Shown piece after piece: positions 2,812 to 59,091 of a stretch of DNA of 64,000 nt (position 1 is the stretch's first letter; each line of letters opens with the position of its first letter). The stretch is taken from IMG/VR virus record IMGVR_UViG_3300042401_002002. One strand, written 5' to 3'. The position numbers and the translations under genes are program-made. The notes under the pieces were generated by a model, which saw only the letters and a program-made list of their open reading frames with translations, searched no databases and had not been told where the DNA came from. The DNA is from a virus. Taxonomy: Duplodnaviria; Heunggongvirae; Uroviricota; Caudoviricetes.

Positions 2812-3951
2812 ATGGCTAAGACCAAATCAGAAACAGCACCAGAAGTTGTTGTCAACACAGAAGAAACTACAGTACCTGCTAGAGGTAAAAAAATCGAAAA
2901 AAAGTCATTTAGTTTAAGTGATTTTAAAGCTAAAAATAATTTAAATGATGAAGTTAAAGATAAACCTTTAGATTTTATTAGAGTATCGCAAGCATTTGAA
3001 GAATCAACTGGTCTAGGTATCGCTGTTGGTTATTTTTCAATTGTTGCTGGGCATTCGAGCGTTGGTAAAAGCACACTAGTAATGGAAGCTATTGTTGGTG
3101 CACAAAAAAAGGGTATATTACCTGTAATTATAGACCTTGAAAATAACTTTTCATTTGAAAGAGCGAAATTAATGGGTATGGAATTTGATGAAATAGTTGA
3201 TGAAAGTACAGGTGAAATTGTAGGTTATGATGGTTTTTTCCTTTATATTAATTCACAATATATTTTAGATAACTACGATAAAAAAAGAAACCCTAAATTA
3301 AAGGAACCAACAATTGAAGGTTTAGCTGCTTGTATGAATCATTTATTAGATGAACAAGAAGATGGTAACTTGGATTACTCTTTATTTTTTGCATTAGATT
3401 CAATAGGTGTATTAGCTGATGAAAAAAGTGCATTAGGTTCTAGGAATAATCAATTTGCTGCTGGAGCTTATTCAACACATTTTCAATCATTATTAAACTA
3501 TAGAATACCTGCGTCTAGAAAACTCAATAGAAAACACACTAATACAGTTTTAGCTGTTAACAAGATTTGGTTGGATAACTTAAATGGAGGAGGAATTAAA
3601 ATGAAAGGTGGTGACTCGTTATTCTATGCTTGCCGTGCAATTTTTTTACTAGGAAATCAAATTACACATGGTACTAAAAAACTTTATGCAGAGTGCACTT
3701 ATCAAGGTCAAAAATATAGTTATCAATATGGAATTGAAGTTAAAGTCAAATGTATAAAGAACCACATTACCGGTGTGTCCGTCGAAAATCGTATCATATC
3801 ATCAGTACACGGTTTCATATCAGTTAACGATGTTGACAAATATAAAAAAGATAATAAAATATTCTTATTATCAAAACTAGGTATACCTGAAAATGCTGAT
3901 GTTGATTTAAAAACAACAGAGATTGAATCAGATAATGTAGAACTAGAATAA
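2812..3951 (+). CDS. recA: RecA/UvsX-like recombinase
   Basis: Walker A GHSSVGKST, IIDLE, Walker B FFALDSIG, C-terminal IKNH motif. Confidence 0.9.
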   Translation: MAKTKSETAPEVVVNTEETTVPARGKKIEKKSFSLSDFKAKNNLNDEVKDKPLDFIRVSQAFEESTGLGIAVGYFSIVAGHSSVGKSTLVMEAIVGAQKKGILPVIIDLENNFSFERAKLMGMEFDEIVDESTGEIVGYDGFFLYINSQYILDNYDKKRNPKLKEPTIEGLAACMNHLLDEQEDGNLDYSLFFALDSIGVLADEKSALGSRNNQFAAGAYSTHFQSLLNYRIPASRKLNRKHTNTVLAVNKIWLDNLNGGGIKMKGGDSLFYACRAIFLLGNQITHGTKKLYAECTYQGQKYSYQYGIEVKVKCIKNHITGVSVENRIISSVHGFISVNDVDKYKKDNKIFLLSKLGIPENADVDLKTTEIESDNVELE

Positions 3952-8075: not shown

Positions 8076-8597
8076 TTAATCAACCAAAGGTAAATCTATT
8101 TTAATTATTTCATAGTTATTTTCAATATAATCACCAGCTCTAAATGAATTTTCAGCATCACCAAAACAAGTAAGCATTAATTCAAAACAAAACCATTTGT
8201 CTGGATTATTGATATTCGACAATGATTTACTTAATCTTGACTCAGCACCAAATAATTTATTTGACAACAAAAATAATGCGTAACTATACCAAACTGATAG
8301 TTGATATTTTTTACCTTTTTGTGATATTAAGAAATTATAATCACCTGATGTTTTTGGTATAAATGACCAAACTTCTCTTTTAGGTTCTTTCTCTTTCCAA
8401 GTTTTATAATCAGTCTCAATCACGCCATGTCCAACAGCCTCAATAACTACTTTTTTACCATCAGGATATTCTACAAGAATAGCTCCGTGATTAAAGTAAG
8501 TTCCCAACACTTCTCTTTGTAAAGCTGAAGCGTAAAACAAAGGTCTTTTCCATTCAAATGGATTATGTATAAGTAACGGAGTTAGTTTTATTTCCAT
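8076..8597 (-). CDS. permuted papain-like (YaeF/YiiX, C92-type) amidase/peptidase
   Basis: His motif FNHGAIL precedes Cys motif KWFCFEL; VIEA...GV signature; GKKY motif. Confidence 0.72.
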   Translation of the reverse strand: MEIKLTPLLIHNPFEWKRPLFYASALQREVLGTYFNHGAILVEYPDGKKVVIEAVGHGVIETDYKTWKEKEPKREVWSFIPKTSGDYNFLISQKGKKYQLSVWYSYALFLLSNKLFGAESRLSKSLSNINNPDKWFCFELMLTCFGDAENSFRAGDYIENNYEIIKIDLPLVD

Positions 8598-8780
8598 TTT
8601 ATCTAATTTTAGATAATCGTAATGTTAGTTTTTTATTTAAATAGTTTGTAAGTTAAATAACTTAATCAAAATATTCAATATACGTTTTATAATTATTTTA
8701 TTACTATTAATAAGTTAAATTATACGTTTCATTTTTATAACAATCAATTACATAAAGTAACTTATTAAAATTTATTATAA

Positions 8781-9299
8781 CTAAGAAACTCTTTTATTTA
8801 ATTTACCTTTAATATCTGTTGTTAACATAGATTCAATACTCAAACCTATTGCTGAATATCTTATAGCATTAAAATAACTAACATATTCAGATTTCAATGT
8901 ATAAACCTTAGTTTGTGCATCATAATTATAAGCTGTTAAATCAGTCAAATCGGTAACAACACCTGTTAAAGTACTAACAACAACCGAATCATCAGTTATT
9001 AATTTATCTAAATTTTTAAATATTGAATTATCAATATTATTTGGTTGAACTTTATTCCATAAATTATTTATCATTGATAATTCATAGTGTGTTGTTGTAG
9101 TTTTTAGTGTTTTATTTAAGAAGGAAATATCTAACTCTTCTACAACAACCAAATATTGCGCACCATTATTTAGTATAGCTAAAACACATGGTACATTATA
9201 TGTTGAACCTGTAGTTGAACCTGTGTATATACCTCCATTTGGGTCATTATCGTTAATTAACCTACCTGATAATATTGTTTTTATTGAATTCATATTCAT
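8781..9299 (-). CDS. tail-fibre accessory protein (putative)
   Basis: Directly downstream of tail fibre 1, same arrangement as the ORF after tail fibre 2. Confidence 0.45.
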   Translation of the reverse strand: MNMNSIKTILSGRLINDNDPNGGIYTGSTTGSTYNVPCVLAILNNGAQYLVVVEELDISFLNKTLKTTTTHYELSMINNLWNKVQPNNIDNSIFKNLDKLITDDSVVVSTLTGVVTDLTDLTAYNYDAQTKVYTLKSEYVSYFNAIRYSAIGLSIESMLTTDIKGKLNKRVS

Positions 9300-26164: not shown

Positions 26165-27550
26165 ATGAAAAAATTACTAACAACGCTATTAATATTATCT
26201 TATTTAACTGTTTCTGCGCAGATTAAAAAAGTTTATTACAATACTCACTCGGACACTACTATATTTAATGGTAAAATATATAGGGAAGATGTTTTTAATC
26301 CAAACAAAACTGTAACTATTAATAACATAAATTATAACTACAGTTTTTTACATTTATATAAAGATACCAAAGGTGCATTAAGAAGTTATGGTGATTTTGA
26401 AGCTAATCGTTGCGAATCAACTGACACAACTTTGTTTTATTATATTAGCAAAAACAGTTTATACAAAGTAAATGACAAGAAAATACAGAAGTTAAAATTC
26501 AATGATGACAACCCACAATTAATTGATGAAATTTGCTTTCTAAGAAAGAATTTTGGTATAGCAAGGTCAAACTACCGACTATATGTTTACGATGGTTCTG
26601 ATACGCTTAAATTCAAATCTAAACTACTAAACTACGCTTTGCCATATAAAGGTGAAGAAAATAAATTTGTTTATTATGATAGTATTTTAGGTTTATTTAA
26701 TGAAAACTTAACACAAGTTATTAATAGAGAAAAATATACAGAAACAGGTTATTATGTACCAAGAGAATCTGTACAAGATTTTCTTAACTATATAAAATGT
26801 AACAACATTAATAATTCGTGTTTAGATACTAAATATGTAAGATATGATTACCCAACATTTAACCAAGAATATACATTTTATTACGACAAACGTGAGTTAT
26901 ACCACTATACTAGCAATTTACTAGAACAATATTTAGATAATCGTTCAGATGAATATTTAAAAGAAATAAGTAAAACACCAGATAGTTTAGTTATTGATAA
27001 TATTATTATGACTGATTTGTTATTAAAAGTTGCTTTACAATCAAAAATAAATTTAGATGTTAAATTATTAACGTATTCAATGTTTTTATTAAATGATAGT
27101 TTAATGATAACAGGTTATAGCCATAATAATGAATATCAATTAGGTTTGTATAACTTAAAAAATAATTCATTCATTAAATTCACACCACCTACTTGCAAGT
27201 TTATTACCAAATATTATGATGAGGATGGTTTTAGAAATATTAAAACCGAAACAGTTCCATTAACACCACATTTAATTTCATATCATTACAATGAGAATGA
27301 AAATAGTGTTTTATGCAGCGGTAATGATGGTTATATATTTAATATTGACTTAAACACATTTAAAATAAATAACATAACTGATTATGTTATTAAAGAAAAT
27401 ATTCACACATCTAAAAATGATAAATTTAAAGAAGTTGAAATGGTCTACTTAAAGGAAATAAAAGATGGAGTTTATACTGAGATACCTTGGTTAAACTATA
27501 TTAAGAAAAACTTCTTAGTTCAAAAATTTTACAATAATGATAATAGATAA
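26165..27550 (+). CDS. exported protein with SPI signal peptide
   Basis: MKKLLTTLLILSYLTVSA|QIKK; TTTG-N19-TAAATTTG promoter at 26105-26135; stop codon overlaps attC-like box. Confidence 0.7.
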   Translation: MKKLLTTLLILSYLTVSAQIKKVYYNTHSDTTIFNGKIYREDVFNPNKTVTINNINYNYSFLHLYKDTKGALRSYGDFEANRCESTDTTLFYYISKNSLYKVNDKKIQKLKFNDDNPQLIDEICFLRKNFGIARSNYRLYVYDGSDTLKFKSKLLNYALPYKGEENKFVYYDSILGLFNENLTQVINREKYTETGYYVPRESVQDFLNYIKCNNINNSCLDTKYVRYDYPTFNQEYTFYYDKRELYHYTSNLLEQYLDNRSDEYLKEISKTPDSLVIDNIIMTDLLLKVALQSKINLDVKLLTYSMFLLNDSLMITGYSHNNEYQLGLYNLKNNSFIKFTPPTCKFITKYYDEDGFRNIKTETVPLTPHLISYHYNENENSVLCSGNDGYIFNIDLNTFKINNITDYVIKENIHTSKNDKFKEVEMVYLKEIKDGVYTEIPWLNYIKKNFLVQKFYNNDNR

Positions 27551-27680
27551 CTAACAGAATATTTGCTAAAGTGGGTTTTTATCCTTACCTTTGTTTTCAA
27601 TCTAAAATTCTACTAAAACCAAAATTATGAACCTTATTCAATCTTTAATAACCCACCTTCGCAAATATTATATGTTGTGT
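27549..27680 (+). repeat. attC-like site A, copy 1
   Basis: R'' AACTAAC (27549-55), arms AATATTTGCTAAAGTGGGTT / AACCCACCTTCGCAAATATT, R' GTTGTGT (27674-80); near-identical to 58057-58189. Confidence 0.72.
27562..27593 (+). promoter_or_regulatory. Bacteroidota-type promoter embedded in attC-like site A
   Basis: TTTG-N20-TACCTTTG. Confidence 0.72.
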
Positions 27681-27956
27681 GTTAGTTTAATAAGACCGCA
27701 ACAACACGACACAGACTTGCAAGAGAATGAAAAAAATGGTAAGTTTGAGAAAAATAATAAGACTATGACAGATGTTGAAGTAAATAATAAAAGGTATCTT
27801 TCATCAAGTAAGATATCTGAAACCGAAATTAACTCTATTAAAAATAGAGCGCAAGAATCATACCAAGCACACCATAACAAGGTAAATCAATTTACCAAAA
27901 TGACACCTGACGAAAGATTAAAAATGGTTTTAAATAATCGCAATGTTTCAAAATGA
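27627..27956 (+). CDS. hypothetical: attC-encoded leader fused to cassette cargo
   Basis: Starts inside hairpin A; first ~43 aa homologous to N-terminus of 58136..58651, remainder unrelated. Confidence 0.6.
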   Translation: MNLIQSLITHLRKYYMLCVSLIRPQQHDTDLQENEKNGKFEKNNKTMTDVEVNNKRYLSSSKISETEINSIKNRAQESYQAHHNKVNQFTKMTPDERLKMVLNNRNVSK

Positions 27957-28484
27957 ATATATTATAGAATACAATATTAATAACTACGGTATTGGTGTAA
28001 TCACTTATGATATCAGTTACATTAATCCATTATGGAAAATAATAATTTTTAAATTTAACTATTTAACGTACTATAATAATTCTATGTTATTAGAGAGTTA
28101 CTTTACTTTAGAAGATGTAAACAAAAATGACAATTTTAGTATGTACAGCAAAAACGATAAAATTATATTATGGAAAATTATTTTTAGTATTAAAAACTAT
28201 TATTTTAACAAACACAAACCAGATATTGTTGAACACTTTATTGATGGTAATTTTTCAAAAAGATTAAAATTATATAAATGTTATTTAAATCCGACACATT
28301 ATTATTACCAAGACGAACAACATTTAAATATATTTTATTTAAAACTTTAACAAAACCAACACACAACATGGGTTTGGTAAAAGCAGGGCTGACGTGAATA
28401 ACCAAGTTTCAACTTCTATCAAACTTAAGTTGTTAAACCCAACAGATGTAATTCTAAACCCTGCCTTCACCAAGCCCTTTGACG
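27675..28484 (+). mobile_element. putative integron-like gene cassette 1 (810 bp)
   Basis: Between G|TT crossover points of sites A and B; 5' end TTGTGT complements its own R'' ACACAAC. Confidence 0.62.
27943..28350 (+). CDS. hypothetical cargo protein
   Basis: 135 aa, overlaps upstream ORF, ends 10 nt before site B. Confidence 0.6.
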   Translation: MFQNEYIIEYNINNYGIGVITYDISYINPLWKIIIFKFNYLTYYNNSMLLESYFTLEDVNKNDNFSMYSKNDKIILWKIIFSIKNYYFNKHKPDIVEHFIDGNFSKRLKLYKCYLNPTHYYYQDEQHLNIFYLKL

Positions 28485-28490
28485 TTAGTT
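28361..28490 (+). repeat. attC-like site B, copy 1
   Basis: R'' ACACAAC, arms GGGTTTGGTAAAAGCAGGG / CCCTGCCTTCACCAAGCCC, R' GTTAGTT (28484-90); near-identical to 58904-59032. Confidence 0.75.
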
Positions 28491-28514
28491 ATCATTATAC
28501 AAACATATAATAAC

Positions 28515-58042: not shown

Positions 58043-58056
58043 TAGTTAAAAACAAT

Positions 58057-58189
58057 AACTAACAGAATATTTGCTAAAGTGGGTTTTTATTCCTACATTT
58101 GTTTCTCAATCTAAAATTCTACTAAAAACCAAGTTATGAACTTTATACAATCTTTAATAACCCACCTTCGCAAATATTTAATGTTGTGT
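58057..58189 (+). repeat. attC-like site A, copy 2
   Basis: R'' AACTAAC, same arms as copy 1, R' GTTGTGT at 58183-89. Confidence 0.72.
58070..58101 (+). promoter_or_regulatory. Bacteroidota-type promoter embedded in site A copy 2
   Basis: TTTG-N20-TACATTTG. Confidence 0.75.
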
Positions 58190-58651
58190 GTTAGTTTGGT
58201 AAGACCGAAACGTAAAACAGAGTTGCAAGAGAATGAAAAAATTGGTAAGTTTGAGAATAACTTATATGAATTTATTATGATAAACAACCCTGAAGCTAAA
58301 AATAAAATAGAATCATTTGAAACACACAAATTATTTTCAAAATTTTTAAAAGAAAAAATAATTTTAGATGATATAAAAGAAATAACTGAATTTATATCAG
58401 AAAGTAAGACTATTATAAATATTGAATTACTTTTTTCAGAAGTTCATATAAAATATGAAGGTTTTATACATGAATCAGGTTTAATCAAAAACAAATATAT
58501 AGTAAAAGATAAAAATTTCAATGTGTTATATGAATTTAAAATAATTAAAAATTACCCAGGACTTTACTGTGAAATTAACAACACAAATCAAGAGTTTAAT
58601 GACGTAATGTTCATTAATATTATAATGAAAATAATTAATAATTTAAAATAA
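58136..58651 (+). CDS. hypothetical: attC-encoded leader fused to a different cargo
   Basis: MNFIQSLITHLRKYLMLCVSLVRP... leader, then ~130 unrelated aa. Confidence 0.62.
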   Translation: MNFIQSLITHLRKYLMLCVSLVRPKRKTELQENEKIGKFENNLYEFIMINNPEAKNKIESFETHKLFSKFLKEKIILDDIKEITEFISESKTIINIELLFSEVHIKYEGFIHESGLIKNKYIVKDKNFNVLYEFKIIKNYPGLYCEINNTNQEFNDVMFINIIMKIINNLK

Positions 58652-59026
58652 ATTCTGTTGAAAGGTTTGGTTGTTAAAGATTACCCTAGTTTCTGTCAAA
58701 ACTAGGGTTGTCTGCTCTACTTTCTTATTTCAAAAAATGTAATTTTATTCACATTAATATTAGTAGTTTTGTTAAAGTACATGGCAACGACAAATGCCAG
58801 AAACAATAGTTTGTAAAAATTTGACATATAAAAATTATTTAGACAGCAATCTACAAACTTTGACAATAACAACCAAACCCAAGACAGAAATAACAAAACC
58901 AACACACAACATGGGTTTGGTAAAAGCAGGGCTGACGTGAATAACCGAGTTTCTACTTCTACCAAACTTAAGTTGTCAAACAAAGTGATGTAATTTTAAA
59001 CCCTGCCTTCACCAAGCCCTTTGACG
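58184..59026 (+). mobile_element. putative integron-like gene cassette 2 (843 bp)
   Basis: Same boundaries as cassette 1, different interior. Confidence 0.62.
58683..58708 (+). terminator. hairpin after cassette 2 cargo
   Basis: ACCCTAGTTT...AAACTAGGGT. Confidence 0.6.
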
Positions 59027-59032
59027 TTAGTT
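58904..59032 (+). repeat. attC-like site B, copy 2
   Basis: R'' ACACAAC 58904-10, R' GTTAGTT 59026-32; arms identical to copy 1. Confidence 0.75.
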
Positions 59033-59091
59033 ATCATTTTACAAAACATAAACCTTATCAAGCTATTTAATTTAAACAACCTTAAATTATT

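Follow-up and report, generated by a model that had tools for sequence, protein, structure and literature searches.

AttC-like hairpin sites in a large T4-like phage probably bound a gene cassette served by the phage's own Xer-type recombinase

Introduction

A 64,000-nucleotide stretch of a tailed phage genome (IMG/VR record IMGVR_UViG_3300042401_002002; hereafter 'the window') contains two imperfect palindromes, hairpins A and B, that bound an 810-bp interval and appear to have exchanged their outer boxes. Is this interval a mobile cassette and, if so, which enzyme joined it there? Integrons are familiar from bacteria, where chemistry on folded strands is considered to need a domain that is specific to IntI. 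An initial annotation, made from the sequence alone, had proposed that the hairpins are attC-like folded sites, that a cassette had joined at G27674|T, and that the recombinase is encoded elsewhere. The analysis described here supports that core reading. We consider it likely that A and B are attC-like recombination sites, that the 810 bp are a cassette, and that a recombinase of the phage itself is the enzyme. Our literature search turned up no phage system of this kind with this recombinase.

Results

Both palindromes, and the distance of 810 bp from G27674|T to G28484|T, were found where the initial annotation had placed them. The arms of hairpin A (27558–27581 and 27646–27669) are 24 nt long and 88% complementary, and those of hairpin B (28370–28388 and 28459–28477) form 16 of 19 possible Watson–Crick pairs. 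In the outer cross-pair, GATAACTAAC at 27546–27555 (the left end of A) has its exact reverse complement, over 10 bp, at 28484–28493 (the right end of B). The inner cross-pair, previously put at about 15 bp, joins 27672–27688 with 28353–28369 over 17 nt at 94%. The two outer boxes of one site had been described as unmatched; this holds past the core, but the AAC and GTT cores do pair within each hairpin, so that the swapping is limited to the box sequence beyond them. The left box of A runs from 27547 rather than from G27546, since the base before ATAACTAAC is G, A or T in the three copies found in the genome and therefore lies outside the element.

The genome carries eight sites (A1, A2, A3, B1, B2, C, B3 and B4) and three units: an A-cargo-B unit at the hairpins described above (unit 1), a second A-cargo-B unit at 58055–59039 (unit 2), and an A-cargo-C unit outside the window (unit 3). 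The genes upstream of units 1 and 2 bear no relation to each other, and these units were therefore not duplicated along with their neighbours. All three copies occupy unrelated intergenic places, between structural genes and remote from the recombinase gene described below.

Site A copy 1 (27547–27687, plus strand) consists of a left box, ATAACTAAC, at 27547–27555, a 2-nt spacer, a left arm at 27558–27576, a 74-nt loop, a right arm at 27651–27669, a 4-nt spacer, the core GTT at 27674–27676 (plus strand; AAC...GTT being the core of the family) and a right box that belongs to the cassette. Site B copy 1 (28354–28497, plus strand) has a left box ending in AAC at 28365–28367, the two arms given above, a spacer TTTGAC, the core GTT at 28484–28486 and then the right box TTAGTTATC, which complements the left box of A. 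Its arms carry A.C mismatches at positions 10 and 13, as in the site family as a whole. After the distal right box comes a tail of ~14 nt (box and tail together 28485–28507, plus strand) that is conserved from unit 1 to unit 2. Units 1 and 2 also have in common a promoter-like match, TTCACC-18-TATCAT, at 28466–28495 in unit 1, which is a match to consensus only.

Chance can be excluded as the source of this arrangement, because a 12-mer of the inner box occurs seven times in the window against 1.3 expected (four of the seven belong to the two units). A scanner for the architecture matched these sites only in the 195-kb genome and nothing in each of 10 shuffles. When both strands were folded as RNA, the bottom strand was the more stable in each hairpin (−32.5 versus −24.3 kcal/mol for the top strand in A, and −48.0 versus −32.8 kcal/mol in B), and the folds of the hairpins beat those of shuffled sequences (z −2.5 to −4.4).

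Cassette 1 (27675–28484, plus strand, 810 bp) opens with a start box of 14 nt (TTGTGTGTTAGTTT), continues with the remainder of ORF109, ORF135 and site B, and ends with G28484. The start box is the reverse complement of the left box of B, with the family's fixed mismatch at position 11. ORF109 (27627–27956, plus strand, 109 aa) takes its ATG from the site A loop and continues across the right arm and the crossover point to enter the cassette; its first 16–17 codons come from site A. Its N-terminus is common to the ORFs of units 2 and 3, and the same leader with different C-termini was found in three more proteins from other samples. ORF135 (27943–28350, plus strand, 135 aa) is a cargo gene that matched no family; a low-confidence Atlas model of its product resembles GNAT acetyltransferases, which we take as a lead only. 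The cargo of the units in the window matched no Pfam or PHROG family, and its homologues were absent from the phage arrays examined.

In unit 2, site A copy 2 (58055–58196, plus strand, core GTT at 58183–58185) is 88.5% identical to copy 1 over 58055–58260, with an in-frame 3-nt indel between the copies. The counterpart of ORF109 in this unit, ORF171 (58136–58651, plus strand, 171 aa), starts in the loop of the site; its first 42 residues are like those of ORF109 and the remainder is unrelated. Its true start is uncertain because the public gene call starts at residue 48, and Atlas gave nothing usable for it. Cassette 2 (58184–59026, plus strand, 843 bp) agrees with cassette 1 in its start box and in the type of its site B, but its cargo is unrelated. 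Site B copy 2 (58897–59039, plus strand) is 93% identical to copy 1 and has its core GTT at 59026–59028, again followed by TTAGTTATC.

The third copy of site A points to the place of the crossover. Its homology to copies 1 and 2 is lost exactly after GTT, in agreement with the proposal that the cassette joined at G27674|T27675, and 870 bp further on lies a different site, C, with matching boxes, as had been forecast beforehand. Body and box are linked: body A goes with ATAACTAAC, B with CACACAAC and C with TTTGGTAAC. A crossover at the left-hand core was rejected, as it would uncouple bodies from boxes. In a related phage the inner boxes are as they are here, while the left box of A and the distal right box have co-varied, to AATAAATAAC and GTTATTTATT respectively. 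Compensatory changes are seen in the arms of site A in related phages.

These sites belong to a larger family. A covariance model (R2), trained on 40 sites that were all taken from other phages, recovered all eight sites of this genome at full length and on the predicted strand (40.7–103 bits, E ≤ 1.7e-5). Plus-strand scores were 42.5 bits for A1 (E 7e-6; about 20 bits on the minus strand), 48.7 bits for A2, 64.5 bits for B1 (E 3e-10) and 64.2 bits for B2. Counting somewhat against our reading, the scores of the A-type sites are the lower ones, and a T stands before their GTT in place of a near-invariant C. The architecture scanner returned 59 hits in 406 kb around homologues of the recombinase versus two in 739 kb of control phage loci. 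All but four of the 59 are found upstream of the recombinase gene and on the strand opposite to it, where they form arrays with as many as seven members. One complete relative (362 kb) has at least 12 sites in a single array, and another (288 kb) has an array beside its recombinase gene together with three remote clusters. Contigs labelled as Bacteroidota MAGs show the same pairing of sites and recombinase, and methyltransferase cassettes recur in the arrays of other phages. Upstream of the integrase of the Polaribacter Freya phages, the scanner found no site of such architecture.

When box positions 5–14 were compared in 39 pairs of neighbouring sites, the right box of the first and the reverse-complemented left box of the second agreed at no fewer than eight of the ten positions in 18 pairs; among unrelated pairs such agreement has a frequency of 0.6%. 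The two boxes of one site match each other no better than chance. The single box mismatch always falls at position 11 (A.C), and the boxes in the window carry it as well. The first 14 nt of a cassette complement the left box of its own site with this one fixed mismatch, a rule that the units in the window obey, and arrays and window alike have cassettes that start with the complement of their own R'', with an inferred crossover at G|TT. It is structure and not sequence that is conserved: double compensatory changes were found at all 16 consensus pairs, and at four pairs in A-type sites although one arm there is coding.

The initial annotation had noted that mismatches favour the bottom strand, and this extends from the folds of A and B to the family: A.C on the top strand, and hence G.T on the bottom strand, accounts for 94 of 140 arm mismatches, and with DNA parameters the bottom strand gave the more stable fold at 41 of 48 sites (p = 6e-8). 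The sites have the architecture of attC sites (folded imperfect palindromes, AAC/GTT cores, an unpaired spacer, mismatched bases and a bottom-strand bias), but the boxes fit the canonical RYYYAAC/GTTRRRY at the AAC/GTT core only, and the R duplex is 14 bp. ORFs run opposite to the top strand of the sites in the arrays beside recombinase genes and along it in the window, a lack of uniformity that likewise weighs against our reading.

A search of the rest of the genome for a tyrosine recombinase found one at genome positions 169639–170448, 12.4 kb past the end of the window. The 269-aa protein has Pfam Phage_integrase and Phage_int_SAM_4 domains, retains the RKHRHY catalytic motifs, and is 60–94% identical to thousands of environmental homologues (the family being defined as 265–269 aa); none of the cultured phages in the collection searched has a protein more than 37% identical to it. 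Its best model is XerA (192 bits versus a cutoff of 220), and XerA (4a8e) aligns with it from end to end. The NCBIfam integron-integrase model TIGR02249 gave 154 bits versus a cutoff of 265, split over two stretches. In alignment with VchIntIA (2a3v), residues 181–209 of the phage protein face residues 181–257 of the structure (29 versus 77 residues), and the additional domain near patch III that is the IntI-specific insert is missing. On this ground we regard the system as an integron analogue and not as an integron. No IntI-type protein was found. Of the two sources that had been suggested for the enzyme, a host IntI or the phage, the second is the likely one: the recombinase is encoded by the phage, is not IntI, and leaves a host IntI unneeded.

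Beside this gene the phage has an array of its own (genome 168213–169602) with two cassettes, orf112 with site B3 and a methyltransferase gene with site B4, and with boxes that were found as predicted beforehand. When the regions 5' of the recombinase gene in six phages are compared, they can be aligned only from ATAAC|TACTATATA onward, a point ~36 nt short of the start codon, which marks an attI-like junction next to the gene and outside the window.

The initial annotation had further pictured a self-complementary docking site that received the cassette, with an empty junction and an 810-bp circle as its traces, and here our searches lent it no support. Neither an empty A site nor a self-complementary docking site was present in any sequence reached. 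The assembled contigs of four sequencing runs, a kind of data that cannot exclude an empty junction or a circle, held the three known copies and neither of these forms; the single joint in them (27751 to 28348) corresponds to unit 2. Viral contigs scanned for exact matches to the arm patterns of A and B gave no hits, and metagenome contigs gave none and then four chance hits in unrelated GC-rich DNA. Neither A nor B was found at 74 loci retrieved with a structural protein (~45% identity), and these loci were rejected as an empty-site control because their synteny is too different. An exonuclease-like neighbour used as a query found no relatives, and exact-protein look-ups of the flanking genes returned the same arrangement only. 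The stretch itself occurs in lake and freshwater DNA runs, with no RNA run listed.

A sign of mobility comes from a related phage, in which a locus with nothing in the present genome is occupied by an A-cargo-B unit with different cargo; that whole unit is bounded by an imperfect direct repeat of ~15–22 nt of target. In this sole presence/absence comparison the entire unit was gained or lost together, which is not what a simple picture of a resident dock predicts. Moreover, five cargoes (units 1 and 2, P0124, P0125 and P0126) share ~55–80 nt past the crossover (codons 17 to ~42). Exchange at G|TT is therefore insufficient by itself, and homologous exchange between conserved ends or a functional N-terminal peptide must play a part as well.

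Discussion

We suggest that A and B act as folded-DNA recombination sites, functionally attC-like, in a cassette system that would be native to the lineage of large, T4-like phages from fresh water to which this genome belongs. The enzyme is likely to be the 269-aa Xer-type tyrosine recombinase encoded by the phage itself, which would act in trans on the folded, single-stranded bottom strand, with strand exchange inside the invariant AAC/GTT core, at or beside G|TT. The 810-bp cassette, made up of a start box, the cargo genes and a site B of its own, would have joined into a type-A site, and such a joining would account both for the cassette's box at the end of A and for the box after B that complements the left end of A. 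The unit at 58055–59039 and the third unit outside the window may have the same origin. Recognition of folded sites by this enzyme is made less certain by its lack of the insert with which IntI contacts extrahelical attC bases in integrons. The analysis shows the site family with its tie to the recombinase gene, the box rule, the breakpoints, the strand asymmetry and the leader fusions; the pairing of enzyme and site, chemistry on single strands, activity at the present day and any role of the leader are inferred.

The system resembles integrons, above all the sedentary chromosomal ones whose attC sites are long and uniform (Vibrio VCRs, for example), in several ways. A tyrosine recombinase of the Xer/IntI branch adjoins a polar array; the sites are folded imperfect palindromes, ~100–135 nt long, with invariant AAC...GTT cores, an asymmetric unpaired spacer and fixed mismatches in favour of the bottom strand; the start of a cassette complements the left box of its own site; and next to the recombinase gene there is a conserved junction. 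Clusters of sites far from the recombinase recall CALINs. The differences are the length of the enzyme (269 aa, with 29 residues where VchIntIA has 77), an R duplex of 14 bp with one fixed A.C mismatch where that of integrons has 7 bp, spacers of 2 nt and 4–6 nt, array genes that mostly run the other way from those of canonical arrays and in some cases may begin within the site that belongs to them, and the carrier, a lytic-type T4-like jumbo phage.

A hairpin of single-stranded DNA is the substrate in CTXphi and other IMEX elements, where folded phage DNA is integrated at the host dif site by the XerCD enzymes of the host. The common point is an Xer-type recombinase that works without the IntI insert; there, however, a whole filamentous phage is integrated, and the system is not known to build cassette arrays within a phage genome.

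What is added by the window is a site that, as the receiver, supplies the start of a protein, and in this site A departs from the ordinary sites of its family. From the ATG in the loop of site A, the 16-residue leader encoded in its right arm runs in frame into whatever follows the crossover, and site A may for this reason act as an expression dock. A small open reading frame of attI1, ORF-11, similarly supplies translation signals to incoming cassettes, but site A, a hairpin of the attC-like kind, differs from attI1 in having several copies, all at a distance from the recombinase gene, and in contributing a conserved leader of 16 residues that is fused to the cargo. We put forward tentatively, and with some doubt, the further idea that site A is a portable expression dock with a start codon, the leader and perhaps a promoter, that its copies are scattered over the genome, that a captured cassette is translated as a leader fusion, and that the whole amounts to a distributed Xer-type integron without the IntI domain. 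Together with the 26 conserved residues that follow it, the leader might serve as an address that directs the cargo to the virion or to a processing protease, for example.

A lineage of very large phages appears to carry the logic of an integron (hairpins, swapped boxes and arrays) with a plain Xer-type recombinase. If the system is active, it would explain how these phages trade in methyltransferases and small accessory genes, it would mean that folded-site recombination needs no IntI insert, and it would offer compact new recombination parts.

We think it unlikely that the hairpins are instead regulatory modules, a 5' hairpin with promoter, leader and translation control and a 3' insulator- or terminator-like hairpin, with cargo swapped by homologous recombination between them and the box complementarity a relic or an aid to RNA folding. 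T4-like phages recombine intensively, and they have a known parallel in PeSLs, short motifs of an early promoter and a stem-loop for which homologous recombination is the proposed mode of exchange and no dedicated recombinase is known. ORFan cassettes flanked by PeSLs, and the internal-protein locus, in T4-type phages are said to have been described by Arbiol et al. (2010) and Repoila et al. (1994), with shuffling reportedly proposed to occur by homologous recombination between repeats. The loci resemble each other in the T4-like genome, in small accessory genes placed between conserved 5' and 3' modules, and in a common 5' leader. Here the cargoes share ~210 bp on the 5' side (site A plus ~80 nt) and ~160 bp on the 3' side, the pattern expected of exchange between homologous flanks, and the ATG and leader inside A and the promoter-like match in the right arm of B would suit regulatory modules. 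PeSL-flanked ORFs, however, have the same short motif on both sides, and in this phage the flanking modules differ and are 140-nt hairpins; the phage sites, hairpins of 100–135 nt across the family, also have swapped boxes, a fixed core and a link to a recombinase gene. The same site family forms arrays beside that dedicated recombinase with breakpoints at a fixed 4-nt core, and a box rule with a fixed mismatch is the signature of reciprocal core exchange, not of homologous exchange. The third A copy breaks at GTT and is paired with a different site, C. A strand-specific RNA role is further opposed by the orientation of the sites relative to transcription, which varies among loci. The mismatches favour folding of the non-coding strand in the window.

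Recombination by the phage's own enzyme also accounts better for these sites than an origin in the host, which we judge very improbable, whereby canonical integron cassettes (CALINs) were moved in by a host IntI and the phage recombinase has nothing to do with them. Qi et al. 2023 (PMC9892861) reported CALINs and integron fragments in phage genomes, including those of virulent Bacteroidota phages (Polaribacter P12002L); using IntegronFinder and HattCI they classed the clusters as lacking an integrase and tested the host enzyme IntI1, and the word 'Xer' is absent from their paper. Their clusters resemble ours in being attC-like, in occurring in virulent phages and in having DNA methyltransferases as typical cargo (N6_N4 methyltransferase cassettes among them), and the attC sites of that study proved to be substrates for IntI1 (PMC9892861). 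Agreement with attC extends to the AAC/GTT cores and the preference for the bottom strand. The present sites differ in being tied to a phage-encoded, non-IntI recombinase: they co-occur with this short protein in dozens of viral contigs, where a conserved junction precedes its start codon by 36 nt. Their 14-bp R duplex with its fixed mismatch contrasts with the 7 bp of attC, their boxes depart from the canonical motifs beyond the core, and the sub-cutoff, divided match to the integron-integrase model and the failure to find an IntI-type protein count against a host enzyme.

Still less credence is due to the view that each A...B unit is a non-autonomous transposon (MITE-like, or of IS200/IS605 type with subterminal hairpins) with ATAACTAAC and GTTAGTTAT as inverted repeats and a transposase elsewhere. 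Homology does end sharply at inverted 9-nt ends, three copies sit at unrelated intergenic places, and the relative has a unit with a short imperfect direct repeat around it where this genome has none. Yet the ends vary between phages while staying mutually complementary, the inner boxes follow the cassette rule of the recombinase-linked arrays, and the hairpins are members of that array family. No target duplication of constant length was seen at the three loci, nor a regular one at loci 1 and 3.

The least probable reading, one large RNA for transcript processing or stability in which outer boxes, hairpin A, inner boxes and hairpin B form a four-way junction enclosing the ORFs, can be drawn and draws on the same folding advantage over shuffles (z −2.5 to −4.4), but its inner helix would fall inside the coding sequence of the leader ORF, the A.C mismatches are on its sense strand, which folds less well than the antisense strand, sites of this kind are found in both orientations with respect to genes, and it matches no Rfam family (tRNA was the only Rfam match at gathering thresholds, with nothing credible at E ≤ 10 over either locus).

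Some smaller features of the two loci may be added. ORF coverage gives no support for recoded stop codons, and two minus-strand ORFs that start in site B (28339–28473 and 58717–58983) look like antisense artefacts. Cassette 2 contains a terminator-like hairpin near 58676–58710.

Paired hairpins in the window and their further copies

Two long imperfect palindromes are present in the region 27546–28493 (unit 1), which the initial annotation had described as a pair of attC-like hairpins bounding an 810-bp interval; its coordinates and interval length are correct. The arms of hairpin A lie at 27558–27581 and 27646–27669 (24 nt, 88% complementary), and those of hairpin B at 28370–28388 and 28459–28477. 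The end of A (27672–27688) is complementary to the start of B (28353–28369) over 17 nt (94%), and the end of B (28484–28493) is the exact reverse complement of the start of A (27546–27555). The proposed swap of boxes between the two hairpins holds for the sequence beyond the core but not for the AAC and GTT cores, which pair within each hairpin. Both hairpins are more stable than shuffled sequence when folded, and the minus strand folds more stably than the plus strand for A (−32.5 versus −24.3 kcal/mol) and for B (−48.0 versus −32.8 kcal/mol), in line with the bottom-strand preference previously noted. The original observation is confirmed.

A second unit (58055–59039) is 88.5% identical to unit 1 in its left module and 93% in its right, with unrelated interiors. 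A third copy of hairpin A (A3) was found on the minus strand at genome 51129–51259 (coordinates of the whole viral record); it matches copies 1 and 2 up to and including GTT, from where an unrelated reading frame runs on. The record to which the window belongs is 195 kb long (26.6% G+C, estimated 61% complete) and carries T4-type baseplate, terminase, sheath and portal genes. Contigs of 265 and 309 kb encode proteins identical to its own, which makes the carrier a jumbo phage.

A phage-encoded recombinase and its adjoining array

A profile of B identified a diverged B-like hairpin at genome 169054–169208, flanked on one side by a methyltransferase gene of raised G+C and on the other by a small ORF and then a gene for a 269-aa tyrosine recombinase (genome 169639–170448). 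A phage recombinase encoded outside the window had been among the possibilities raised initially. The protein contains Phage_integrase and SAM_4 N-terminal domains, retains the catalytic motifs and scores highest against XerA-type models, with integron-integrase model scores below cutoffs. The IntI-specific insert is absent, because only 29 of its residues stand opposite 77 in the integron integrase VchIntIA. Environmental data contain very many homologues (60–94% identical), in T4-like contexts. In six phages, the sequence upstream of the recombinase gene can be aligned only from ATAAC|TACTATATA onward, a boundary that marks an attI-like junction. Many public assemblies (recombinase loci L086, L087, L088, L090–L092 and L094) end 30–200 nt upstream of the gene; such breaks would be expected if the adjoining array were repeated or variable within the population.

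Site plan and box complementarity

Hairpins upstream of recombinase homologues share a common plan: a left box ending in AAC, a 1–3-nt spacer, a ∼19-bp arm with two A.C mismatches, a loop, the return arm, a 4–6-nt spacer, GTT and a right box. They fall into two length classes (∼98 and ∼135 nt). On one contig, the left box of the next hairpin is the reverse complement of the preceding hairpin's right box. This is the integron cassette rule, and the three predictions that it made for this genome all held. B3 is a site in the array beside the recombinase; its left box has a reverse complement upstream of the site, 37 nt from the recombinase start (10/11 positions). Beyond the methyltransferase, a new hairpin (B4) has a left box that matches the reverse complement of the B3 right box (13/14), opening the further site that was predicted. 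A3 is followed 870 bp downstream by a different hairpin with matching boxes (C), whose left box complements the right box of A3 (13/14) and whose right box complements its left (12/14). An architecture scanner matched only these eight sites in the whole genome, and nothing in ten shuffles.

Adjacent sites agree at ≥8 of the 10 box positions 5–14 in 18 of 39 pairs, as against 0.6% of unrelated pairs, and over the same positions the two boxes of a single site agree no better than chance. The sole mismatch is always at box position 11, where the right box has A and the left box has C, including in the window's inner boxes and in site C. The arm consensus displays double compensatory changes at 16/16 pairs, top-strand A.C accounts for 94 of 140 arm mismatches, and the bottom strand is more stable in 41 of 48 sites (DNA parameters).

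In the long (∼135-nt) sites the loop sequence is non-random (L006:9103–9168, in a stretch of this genome, and columns 30–110 of the site alignment). Two direct repeats of 37 nt lie in the B3 loop, and many sites have spaced TTAATT.A and TTTGT motifs in common; these elements might serve as accessory binding sites or as promoters. The cassette next to the recombinase encodes an N6_N4 methyltransferase (L006:8286–9060, genome 168286–169060, outside the window) whose start codon falls within the loop of the cassette's own site, B4; the homologous gene in the array of another phage (L105) likewise starts in the loop of its site. The methyltransferase here comprises two overlapping frames (8286–8687 and 8635–9060), and the L105 homologue a single one; the split could represent a frameshift, a pseudogene or a sequencing error.

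Distribution across phages

The 30 viral loci reached via the recombinase (406 kb) gave 59 scanner matches, and control phage loci totalling 739 kb gave 2. Of the 59, 55 are located on the strand opposite to the recombinase gene and upstream of it, with as many as seven sites to an array. A covariance model trained solely on sites of other phages recovered 8/8 sites of this genome at full length and on the correct strand, with A scoring ∼20 bits on the opposite strand. In complete relatives large arrays adjoin the recombinase, and one also has remote clusters that follow the box rule. The same pairing of recombinase and sites occurs on contigs labelled as Bacteroidota MAGs. On one Flavobacteriales MAG contig (L146:9509–14973, recombinase 38% identical) the layout differs from that of the phage arrays: the sites share the strand of the gene and lie downstream of it.

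Ten near-identical cultured Polaribacter phages (L125:1–4150, Freya_10; L126:1–900, Freya_1) differ in small ORFs immediately upstream of the integrase, from 0 to ∼4.1 kb. Their integrase is 36% identical to this recombinase; the scanner detected no site of this plan upstream of it, and a hairpin at ∼3750–3830, similar to the arm motif of B, ends ...ACCAAC-GTT.

An ATG and a putative leader within site A

The loop of site A holds an ATG, and its right arm codes for residues 7–14 of a frame that crosses the crossover, giving ORFs of 109, 171 and 117 aa in the three units. An in-frame 3-nt indel separates copies 1 and 2, and arm pairing is kept through compensatory changes despite one arm being coding. 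The same N-terminus is found in three further environmental proteins, which diverge after it. One public gene call places the start of ORF171 at residue 48, and the start in the A loop is putative. After ORF171, cassette 2 carries a terminator-like hairpin (58676–58710; 9-bp stem CCCTAGTTT...AAACTAGGG), separated from site B by ∼190 nt of non-coding DNA.

Probable position of the crossover and mobility of whole units

Box relations taken alone are symmetric and cannot tell which core recombines. Sequence comparisons favour a crossover at the right-hand G|TT, because bodies and boxes travel together (A always with ATAACTAAC, B with CACACAAC and C with TTTGGTAAC), because A3 homology breaks at GTT, the very point named in the initial annotation (G27674|T), and because the outer boxes changed jointly in L138, a related phage: the left box of A became AATAAATAAC and the distal right box GTTATTTATT, with the inner boxes unchanged.

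Some features fit a simple cassette less well. Units 1 and 2 have approximately 55–80 nt past the crossover in common with each other and with the three environmental proteins, and since these carry different cargoes, G|TT exchange alone does not explain cargo replacement. In L138 an entire 1.15-kb unit (A, two ORFs and a B-type site) lies between homologues of genes that are adjacent here, at genome 92278–92299, where there is no A site; these 22 nt align to both sides of the insertion. The comparison shows mobility, though of the whole composite. L135 has an A site that lacks part of its left side and borders directly on a coding sequence, and neither a circle nor an empty junction is visible in public contigs. 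With these caveats, the reading of the units as cassettes docked at attC-like sites is supported.

L138:447–468 and 1621–1642 form an imperfect direct repeat around the unit, of a sequence that occurs once at genome 92278–92299. Unit 2 is flanked by a similar short repeat, AAAACAATAAC / AAAACATAAAC (58044–58063 and ∼59041–59053).

Relation to known systems

The closest system is the integron. This one appears to work like an integron, but is not classed as one because the defining integrase feature, the IntI-specific insert, was tested for and is absent. Qi et al. 2023 (PMC9892861) reported that virulent phages carry integrase-less attC clusters, with methyltransferases as cargo, and used IntI1 to recombine them. 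The literature that we searched, with incomplete coverage, contained no paper in which a Xer-type recombinase encoded by a phage is tied to such sites. Newly described here are A-cargo-B units remote from the recombinase, a site A that bears a leader, covariation between phages in the outer boxes that go with A, and a presence/absence comparison.

Additional observations

ARAGORN reports a tRNA with anticodon CTA ('Pyl') at 1480–1572, a possible amber suppressor; ORF coverage gave no sign of TAG recoding. The site model also matches genome 66537–66627, outside the window, weakly and over part of its length (∼26 bits, E ∼0.02, model positions 21–112); this stretch may be a decayed site.
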